A stretch of 63,934 bases of DNA, counting the filler, from Stramenopiles sp. TOSAG23-6 (lineage: Eukaryota), in NCBI GenBank assembly GCA_900128565.1. It is 28 parts of 28 records of this genome, joined end to end, with 100 filler letters (N's around TTAATTAATTAA, not from the genome) between each part and the next. Parts side by side here need not be neighbours in the genome. Positions count along the whole stretch, not along the records: positions 29,843 to 32,029 come from LT638226.1; 27 more parts are not named here. One strand, written 5' to 3'. The notes under the pieces are model-generated. The model saw only the letters and a program-made list of their open reading frames with translations, had not been told where the DNA came from and ran no database searches. Within the stretch, counting starts at the first letter, position 1. Each line of letters starts with the position of its first letter. The position numbers were made by a program, and so were the translations under genes. Positions 31,020 through 31,959 of the stretch are shown here, piece after piece.

Positions 31020-31959
31020 ATGTTCTCGCGCCAGGCTATTTTAAGAAGTAATGCTAATATTTTTAAGCGACTATATTCTGTGAAAGCATTAAAAAAGACT
31101 CCATTACATAGTTTGCATATTTCTATGAAAGCATTCATGACAGGCTTTGGCGGTTGGGACATGCCACTTTATTATGAGGATGGAATAATGAAGGAGCACG
31201 TTCACTGCCGTACTGAAGCTGGGCTTTTCGATGTGTCTCATATGTTGGGAATAAAAATCACTGGATCTGATCGTGTATTATTTGCTGAAAAATTTCTCCC
31301 CGCAAATGTTGCTGAGCTTGCAGATGGGCATGGTTGCCTGACAAATATTCCTAACTCTGAGGGCGGACTCATTGATGACTGTATCATTACAAACGCCGGT
31401 GATCATCTTTTTCTTGTAATAAACGCTGGACATGAAGAAAAAGATGTTCCACACATGCATAAGATATTAGATAGTTTTGATGGAGATGCTCATTTTGAGT
31501 TACAAGAAGGAAAAGGCATTCTTATACGTTGAATCTAAAAAAAAAAAAAAAAAAAAAAAAAATCCTAAAAAGCAGTTTGTACCTAATGTTTTTTTTACTA
31601 TTTTTTTATTTTCACAATACATGCACTTCAAGGCCCTAAAGCGACTTCTGTATTAGAAAGACATACTTCCAATGTTGACTTTAGTACGTTTGGATTCATG
31701 ACAGGTCGTTCAATGTCAGTGTACGTTTTTATTTGAATTTCAAATTTATATTTTTTTTTTTGGTTTTCATACAAAATTTTGTACCTAACAAAAAAAATCT
31801 AGACAATATTTTTTCATCTATATGAATGGCACTGAATGTTTTGTGACCAGAAGTGGCTATACAGGAGAAGATGGATATGAAATTTCTGTTGCTGGGGATC
31901 ATACCGAAGCTTTAGCAAAAACATTACTCGGAGAACCTGAAGTAAAACCAATTGGACTT
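31020..31959 (+). CDS. AMT: Glycine cleavage system T protein (aminomethyltransferase), mitochondrial, 3 exons (partial)
   Basis: KTPLH, [42 protein letters not shown]. Confidence 0.95.
31524..31622 (+). other. Family intron, AT..AT
   Basis: CTT|ATACGT...GTACCTAAT...CAATACAT|GCA restores GIL-ALQGP. Confidence 0.88.
31721..31823 (+). other. Family intron, GT..AT
   Basis: GT|GTACGT...TCTATAT|G AAT gives [15 protein letters not shown]. Confidence 0.85.

Follow-up and report, generated by a model that had tools for sequence, protein, structure and literature searches.

The window analysed here is the whole stretch of 63,934 bases from Stramenopiles sp. TOSAG23-6, which was composed of 28 short contigs of about 2.2 kb apiece, with a GC content of about 30%, separated by 27 linkers that each read N44-TTAATTAATTAA-N44. 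The contig at 29843-32029 carried the gene for the glycine cleavage T protein (GcvT, hereafter AMT), and the subject of the present study was a segment of 99 nucleotides (nt) in that gene, at 31524-31622, which the original prediction had described as an intron starting with A. The features of the gene, including its putative introns, were as follows.

31020-31523, plus strand: AMT exon 1, 168 codons from the ATG, supported by PDB, Pfam and the public gene model P0134
31524-31622, plus strand: AMT intron 1, 99 nt, ATACGT...ATACAT (AT..AT; other register TA..CA at 31523-31621), defined by the tblastn gap and entered as row i31524_A of alignment A1
31524-31529, plus strand: 5' splice-site hexamer ATACGT (family consensus GTAYGT)
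31577-31587, plus strand: branch-like motif TTTGTACCTAAT (family form TTTGTACCTAAC), with the putative branch A at 31586, 36 nt to the 3' end
31613-31622, plus strand: 3' end motif CACAATACAT of AMT intron 1
31623-31720, plus strand: AMT exon 2 (ALQGPKATSV...GRSMS + gt), supported by tblastn and Pfam GCV_T 142-172
31721-31823, plus strand: AMT intron 2, 103 nt, GTACGT..TACCTAAC..CTATAT (GT..AT; TG..TA or TA..TG give the same mRNA)
31824-31959, plus strand: AMT exon 3 (..KPIGL), with the end of the high-scoring segment pair (HSP) at 31959 in 12/12 relatives
31960-32029, plus strand: start of AMT intron 3 (GTACAT..TACCTAAC), cut by the contig end

The translation of exon 1 matched solved aminomethyltransferases in the PDB with an E value of 5e-29, and the Pfam family GCV_T was found at positions 1-128 in exon 1, at 142-172 in exon 2 and from 176 onward at residue 2 of exon 3. 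We took 12 full-length AMT relatives as tblastn queries against the contig; according to the database search, these relatives were 67-82% identical to the window protein over exon 1, and the nearest hits with a taxon name were haptophytes (55-58%). Because the AMT relatives were intron-free genes on environmental contigs and the named hits were haptophytes, an initial suspicion of a tunicate or diplonemid source was given up. It was observed that all 12 relatives left a single gap of 33 codons whose bounds were exactly 31524-31622; it was flanked by ..QEGKGIL and ALQGPKA.., or by sequences very like them, and the identity was 52-67% over the whole gapped HSPs. The segment in the gap held four in-frame stops and stood in the context GGC ATT CTT|ATACGT...TTTGTACCTAAT...CACAATACAT|GCA CTT CAA GGC CCT, and the translation from 31623 onward read ALQGPKATSVLERHTSNVDFSTFGFMTGRSMSV. 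The mRNA of the relatives was obtained with only two registers, AT..AT and TA..CA; the latter (31523-31621) yields an identical mRNA, as bases 31523 and 31622 are alike, and no register starting with GT gave that junction. These results bore out what had been claimed for this site, namely a start with A that no GT donor can replace and a 3' end other than AG. At the site of intron 2, all 12 relatives read FMTGRxxxVNGxEC, with V-N/Q/S/K/A-G at the junction and with no indel or extra residues. Since the gap in GCV_T between positions 172 and 176 leaves room for only the junction codon and an N, and the relatives have no extra residues there, intron 2 was placed at 31721-31823.

Three more sites with the same AT start had been named in the original prediction (2786, 8746 and 8985). 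Two of the four features listed below, at 2531 and 2786, lay in a gene for a fidgetin-like AAA ATPase (Pfam AAA, AAA_lid_3 and Vps4_C).

2531-2639, plus strand: intron of the AAA gene, GTAGGT..TACCTAAC..ATATAT (GT..AT), with residues 215|216 of the relative P0176 at 2530|2640 and no indel
2786-2959, plus strand: 174-nt intron of the AAA gene, starting with ATACGT and holding two tandem branch modules, defined with P0176
8746-8872, plus strand: 127-nt intron ATATGT..TACCTAAC..ATACAT in a gene without a Pfam family, defined by frame continuity only (phase 1, T+GG)
8985-9110, plus strand: partial intron starting with ATACGT, with TACCTAAC at 9051 and the acceptor beyond the contig end

P0176, the single close AAA relative found, was an uninterrupted protein of 343 aa called on a 4,128-nt contig. 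In the tblastn comparison, residue 263 of P0176 was placed at 2781-2783 and residue 265 at 2961-2963. Only one codon therefore lies between 2783 and 2961, so that the intron is 174 nt long and starts at 2784, 2785, 2786 or 2787 (AT, TA, AT or TA), never with GT. The M of P0176 fits the junction codon at+g, which corresponds to 2786-2959 and to the donor register of the family described below. At the same place, human FIGNL1, human spastin and Caenorhabditis elegans FIGL-1 (PDB chains) read ..EAS followed by LGPIR, with no residues between. At 8746, no in-frame GT-AG or GC-AG alternative was found within the range searched, and a GT two bases upstream would demand a 3' end of TG. Thus the claim of a recurrent AT start stood at 2786 by homology and at 8746 by frame, and at 8985 it reached as far as the donor and branch motif of an intron whose acceptor falls past the contig end. 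We also considered a model in which the donor lay 4 nt inward and the 3' end 2 nt shorter, giving GT..AC introns with two added residues in the same frame; it was rejected because it was contradicted by all 12 AMT relatives and by P0176.

Comparison across the window indicated that an introner-like element occurs in about 44 copies in 61 kb and that AMT intron 1 is one of these copies, in diverged form. The consensus of the element was (C/A)AT|GTAYGTTTT..TTTGTACCTAAC..(34-49 nt)..AATACAT|G. From the upstream exon, ending in (C/A)AT, the element ran through GTAYGTTTT, a T-rich stretch often containing GAATTTCGAATTT, then TTTCGTACGAAATTTTGTACCTAAC, an A/T-rich stretch and AAATATTTTTCACAATACAT, after which the exon resumed with G. 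The total length was about 90-130 nt and the density about one copy per 1.4 kb, within genes whose frames were otherwise intact, including those for AMT, the AAA ATPase, an SDR protein, a methyltransferase and others. The two strands together held 48 occurrences of the motif TACCTAAC (1.07 expected), a number reached in none of 100 shuffles, and GTAYGTTTT occurred 42 times against 2.5 expected. One contig, at 32130-34315, was a perfect palindrome whose list of open reading frames (ORFs) was mirrored about ~33222, and it had the look of a chimera from amplification or assembly; the counts include its introns once.

Alignment A1 comprised 23 complete copies out of 28 complete pairs; the copy at 2531 was left out for its GTAGGT donor, and those at 2786, 5722, 26836 and 32634 for their long or tandemly duplicated bodies. 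In the aligned donors, G was found at +1 in 21/23 copies, T at +2, A at +3 and T at +6 and +7 were present in all, and Y at +4 and R at +5 held as well. The other columns that were invariant or above 90% were TTT-GTACCTAAC, A-ATACAT and most of TTTGTACCTAAC, at a mean column identity of 47%. Where the copy was clear, 34-49 nt separated the putative branch A from the 3' end, and in one case 60 nt. The AMT copy was the most diverged row of the alignment, with a run of 29 A and with TACCTAAT instead of TACCTAAC; its donor, branch and 3' motifs were all kept, and the remainder of the element beyond these three motifs was lost. Inspection of A1 by eye for covariation between a GTAT or GTAC donor and the internal palindrome CRTACG revealed no pattern.

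Several structural variants of the element were also observed. The introns at 2786-2959, 5722-5931 and 32634-32829 carried two tandem copies of an internal module ending in TACCTAAC. At 56571-56683, an intron ending in ..AAAATACAT at 56674 was followed by a new donor, GTACGTTTT, at 56675, so that two elements abutted with no exon between. Many contigs stopped inside an element, for example at 4487-4507, 9052-9110, 25269-25283, 32015-32029 and 59488-59497, and thus the repeat probably breaks the assembly. When other collections were scanned for the branch module of the element, no match was found in viral contigs, and one chance match, in a metagenome-assembled genome of Bacteroidales, was found in genome contigs. 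No autonomous element was seen in the window.

The terminal bases were then counted over all usable copies. The first base of the donor was G in 40/44 copies and A in 4/44, the latter at 31524, 2786, 8746 and 8985; the count combined 37 curated donors (33 G and 4 A) with seven further copies starting with G, at 38863, 43397, 46539, 56328, 59355, 61319 (minus strand) and 33124. The acceptors ended in AT in 32/36 and in AG in 4/36, from 33 curated cases (30 AT and 3 AG) to which two AT and one AG were added. The four copies ending in AG (25424-25520, 26179-26279, 21181-21279 on the minus strand and ~61220-61319 on the minus strand) all started with G. The exon before the donor ended in T in 34/37 cases and in AT in 25/37, position -3 was C or A in 25/37, and the first exon base after the acceptor was G in 21-22/33. 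These base counts suggested that the target was C-AT-G and that its AT was duplicated on insertion; GTAY...RTAC would in that case be the element itself, and the AT at the 3' end would be the target-site copy. The inverted repeat of the element consisted of GTAY/RTAC only. For the 25 exons ending in AT, a register of AT..AC gives the same mRNA, and GT..AT was the sole register valid for all copies. The loose terminal dinucleotides would thus result from an element end joined to a target-site copy.

Since A at +1 appeared as a G-to-A change in 4 of the 44 copies, the introns starting with A do not form a separate class. The idea of a special AT-AT class was accordingly given up, and we favour a reading in which these introns are G-to-A variants of a mobile GT..AT family handled by a permissive major spliceosome. 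The bare motif ATAYGTTTT occurred nine times against 4.3 expected, a number reached in 6 of 100 shuffles; it was not enriched, and an element body followed in only 3/9 occurrences. The case for a start with A therefore rests on context, that is, on the element body and TACCTAAC, and not on motif counts. Downstream of the acceptors, an AG was present at exon +9/+10 in 8/31 cases (for example, at 31631-31632, 24965-24966 and 29419-29420) against 0-4 at other positions from 2 to 24. This recurrent AG may have arisen by chance, may reflect the coding phase or may serve as a helper or backup site. No mirror CT was present upstream of the donors at exon -12/-11.

The copies were further examined for signs that they are spliced introns and not mere insertions. 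In 27/27 elements with both ends, the sense ORF run upstream was longer than the antisense run, indicating sense orientation. The acceptor as defined above was the best of three offsets in 19/23 usable pairs; the four exceptions were 26363, which a short flanking exon accounts for on checking by hand, and 26179, 56571 and 62038. Because the copies lie in sense orientation, their motifs are better kept than the rest, their density is high in genes with intact frames and their acceptors restore the best frame, splicing was favoured. Absence of the introns in relatives was assessed for two genes, AMT and AAA. The AMT gene was uninterrupted across both junction sites in 10/10 related metagenome loci examined out of 20 returned, including an 80.8-kb contig with 30% GC, and P0176 was collinear with the window exons across both AAA introns in the comparison at the protein level. 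Judged from these sequence comparisons, the introns appear to be recently gained. Contigs from RNA libraries matched the internal module at 90-99% identity (31751-31798 and 31975-32029) and ran into other flanks, with one loose end at ..ACAATACAT; such element copies in RNA libraries may be either pre-mRNA or carried-over DNA.

Taken together, the segment at 31524-31622 is probably a spliceosomal intron, an old and diverged copy of a 90-130 nt element of the introner type, removed by a U2-type spliceosome that is less strict about the 3' end and accepts R at +1. The splicing signals of yeast are of the U2 type, and the GTAYGT donor and TAC-C-TAAC branch of the family are each one letter off from them; TACTAAC itself occurred four times in the window, and the family motif TACCTAAC carries one extra C. 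A GTAYGT donor is compatible with complementarity to U1 and U6, as a general property of these small nuclear RNAs. Contrary to the U2-type rule of an initial G and a terminal YAG, A was found at +1 in 4/44 copies and the end AT in 32/36.

In most genes of the window the element has inserted itself in sense orientation, and it supplies a yeast-like U2-type 5' site, GTAYGT, and a branch site, TTTGTACCTAAC, and no AG. The frame is restored only by a cut after the element end and the AT target-site copy (...AATACAT|G). In the mechanism that we consider likely, the major spliceosome would recognise the 5' site by way of positions +2 to +7 and the branch site, and would use as its 3' site the YAT that follows the branch at about 34-49 nt. 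With U and not G as the last base of the intron, the first base would only need to be a purine, and a G-to-A change at +1 would still splice. We infer from these signals that the RNA is cut at the junctions defined by homology and that the U2-type machinery is the agent. The rule itself, purine at +1 with U at -1, is put forward as a conjecture; every copy that starts with A and has a known end finishes in T, and so do most copies that start with G.

Several observations weigh against this interpretation. Removal of a transposon together with one target-site copy restores any ORF, and thus frame and homology show what must go but not that it is spliced. Four metatranscriptome runs covered exon 1 only (31008-31510), with no reads spanning a junction. 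The A at 31524 is known from one DNA source, with no independent confirmation. The family register at 2786 gives a 3' end of TT and not AT. Shared descent accounts for part of the motif conservation among young copies. In addition, in-frame GT-AG or GC-AG alternatives were available in 15/18 introns when losses of up to 30 nt of exon or retention of up to 45 nt of intron were allowed.

A more far-reaching proposal is possible, though we regard it as rather doubtful. The major spliceosome in this stramenopile lineage might have swapped the universal second-step contact between G at +1 and G at -1 for one between a purine at +1 and U at -1, so that GT-AT would be the default, AT-AT would work and AG would only be tolerated. 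This change might have let a transposon lacking AG colonise most genes, in which case the public proteome of the lineage, modelled on GT-AG, would be wrong at most introns of the family.

Among the other explanations considered, the one that best withstood the evidence was that the copies starting with G are spliced, whereas those starting with A are dead, representing pseudogenes, null alleles or errors of single-cell amplification. A change of the first intron base from G to A blocks the second step of splicing in yeast and mammals, A was found in only 4/44 copies, and there was no independent DNA read of base 31524, all of which would agree with such a view. However, the exons of AMT were intact, with the 67-82% identity to relatives over exon 1 given above, and the AMT copy, although the most diverged of the 23, kept its three motifs, as would be expected under long-term selection for splicing. 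Moreover, the four cases of A occurred in three genes with all flanking frames open, and four errors all hitting position +1 would not be credible. These results made the explanation unlikely.

Another explanation was that the introns are removed by canonical GT-AG splicing at nearby sites, at 31528-31632 in the case of AMT intron 1 (giving ..GILIRPKATSV..), with small indels tolerated in the protein and with the A at 31524 being exonic. The public model P0134 was built in this manner. It is a protein of 256 aa that was 100% identical to AMT exon 1 over its first 168 aa, and its source label was 'GSMAST32.ASY1.ANO1.1289.1 assembled CDS', which we read, from the label alone, as an assembly of a MAST-3 marine stramenopile. 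The model read ..GKGILIRPKATSV.. and ..GRSMSVQYFFIYMNGTEC.. and ended with ..IGLVHFES. Its intron 1 was the in-frame GT-AG segment 31528-31632 (GT at 31528 and AG at 31631-31632); the AG of TCTAG within intron 2 was then used, and the model read on into intron 3. As a result, P0134 had IR in place of the conserved ALQG and an additional QYFFIYM at intron 2, and neither change was found in any of the 12 relatives. The in-frame solutions in 15/18 introns and the AG at exon +10 in 8/31 acceptors, which fits a recurrent solution at +4/+10, are consistent with canonical splicing. In contrast, canonical splicing would delete ALQG, present in 12/12 relatives, and add QYFFIYM, absent in 12/12; P0176 was collinear with junctions of the AT and TT type and with none of the GT-AG type; no GT-AG or GC-AG solution existed in 3/18 introns; and the alternative sites lay at variable offsets from the conserved motifs, with the AG at +10 missing in 23/31. 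We therefore consider this explanation improbable. We take P0134 to be a gene model forced to GT-AG and not a cDNA, and gene models of the same assembly may be wrong wherever the element sits.

The original prediction had offered a hybrid or diverged minor spliceosome as one of two readings, while noting that the signals looked more like those of yeast than those of U12-type introns. The latter remark was well founded; the former reading has little left to commend it, and we regard removal by a diverged or hybrid U12-type spliceosome as very improbable. The family does share some habits of U12-type introns: its 5' site is long, conserved and begins with R, its branch site is strong and its AN ends are loose. 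The flexibility of RT-AN termini seen here (GT-AT, AT-AT and GT-AG) amounts to a resemblance only. Six of eight letters are common to TACCTAAC and the U12 branch consensus TCCTTAAC. Nevertheless, TCCTT followed RTA in 0/23 aligned donors, RTATCCTT occurred five times in the window against 4.1 expected, which is chance level, and TCCTTAAC was found once on both strands together. The branch lay 34-49 nt from the 3' end, whereas U12-type introns need a short distance, and the family was the majority intron of the window and not a class of less than 1%. On the other side, the family shows exactly GT-AT, AT-AT and GT-AG ends, and AT-AN and GT-AT ends are within reach of the U12 machinery (PMC1557818).

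The weakest explanation, non-spliceosomal excision in which pairing between the two intron ends acts as the guide (a route proposed for the nonconventional introns of euglenids and diplonemids), could draw on the non-canonical ends, the short direct repeats AT..AT at the borders and the possible pairing of GUAU at +1 to +4 with AUAC at -6 to -3, but it is hardly tenable, because RNAalifold on the 23 copies of A1 gave 0 consensus pairs and the fold of the AMT intron did not differ from shuffled sequences (z = -0.11), a lack of conserved pairing that speaks against a structure-guided route, and because the nonconventional introns lack the U1-compatible GTAYGT and the TACTAAC-like branch that are both conserved here (PMC6221363).

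The family was compared with known systems. The closest parallel was found in the tunicates Fritillaria borealis and F. pellucida, in which introns derived from miniature inverted-repeat transposable elements end in a YAY triplet that is also found ahead of the 5' site; AT is the commonest 3' end in F. pellucida (44%), and removal of the Fritillaria introns is attributed to the U2-type spliceosome (PMC13326754; PMC11282704). A duplication of U2AF has also been described in Fritillaria (PMC13326754; PMC11282704). Like the Fritillaria introns, those of the window are lineage-specific, derived from a transposon and finished with a non-AG 3' end that repeats an exonic triplet. Unlike them (5' ends mostly AG, no GTAYGT and very diverse termini), they form one homogeneous family with a strong GTAYGT and TACCTAAC, and their host is a stramenopile protist.

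Many near-identical short genic elements in sense orientation that are absent in relatives are also typical of the introners of Micromonas, Aureococcus and dinoflagellates (PMC12130899; PMC11282704). Known introners number in the hundreds; the element provides one splice site and the target-site copy the second (PMC12130899; PMC11282704). Their curation admitted GT/GC/GA/AT-AG/AC borders, and families whose ends were unfamiliar were kept only with RNA support (PMC12130899); in contrast to the AG or AC ends of the curated introners, the window family ends in AT. The introners of Amoebophrya likewise concern a marine protist with invasive intronic elements and borders other than GT-AG (PMC7789003), although their direct repeats are variable (3-5 nt) and their inverted repeats strain-specific (PMC11282704), whereas the ends here are fixed as GTAY..RTACAT. 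Among U12-type introns, human and mouse together have 12 AT-AT and 7 GT-AT cases, and the splicing of AT-AN and GT-AT introns falls to the U12 machinery (PMC1557818). The window introns share the terminal pairs, the purine at +1 and the free last base with these mammalian introns, and differ from them in lacking the U12 consensus for 5' site and branch, in having a long distance from branch to 3' end and in being abundant. With the nonconventional introns of euglenids and diplonemids (PMC12621601; PMC6221363), they share borders other than GT-AG and repeats resembling target-site duplications; the former depend on end pairing and have no U1-compatible donor or branch, whereas donor and branch are the most conserved parts here and no structure was found.

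In the literature searched, we found no use of TACCTAAC or UACCUAAC as a splicing signal, no GT-AT introns in a stramenopile and no protist family with GT-AT and AT-AT introns like that of the window. Splice sites were not discussed in the main texts of the papers on single-cell genomes of MAST lineages covered by our term search, whose supplements may hold intron statistics. If RNA confirms the junctions, Fritillaria would be joined by a second lineage, independent and distant from it, in which introns born from transposons are spliced at a 3' end other than AG. The signals are unusually clean, with one donor, one branch and one 3' motif, and the variation between G and A at +1 against a fixed U at -1 would provide a natural mutational series for the parts of the spliceosome that enforce the first and last bases of introns. 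As for annotation, P0134 is the one public model that was checked; if others were built alike, gene counts and functional inferences for the lineage would need re-annotation.

Two further observations concerned the window as a whole. A scan with Rfam at gathering thresholds gave 0 matches to RNA families in the window. Telomere-like AACCCTAACCCT strings were found within open frames at 4339-4356, 8690-8705, 16400-16420 and 6400-6450; they encode NPNP and are not chromosome ends.

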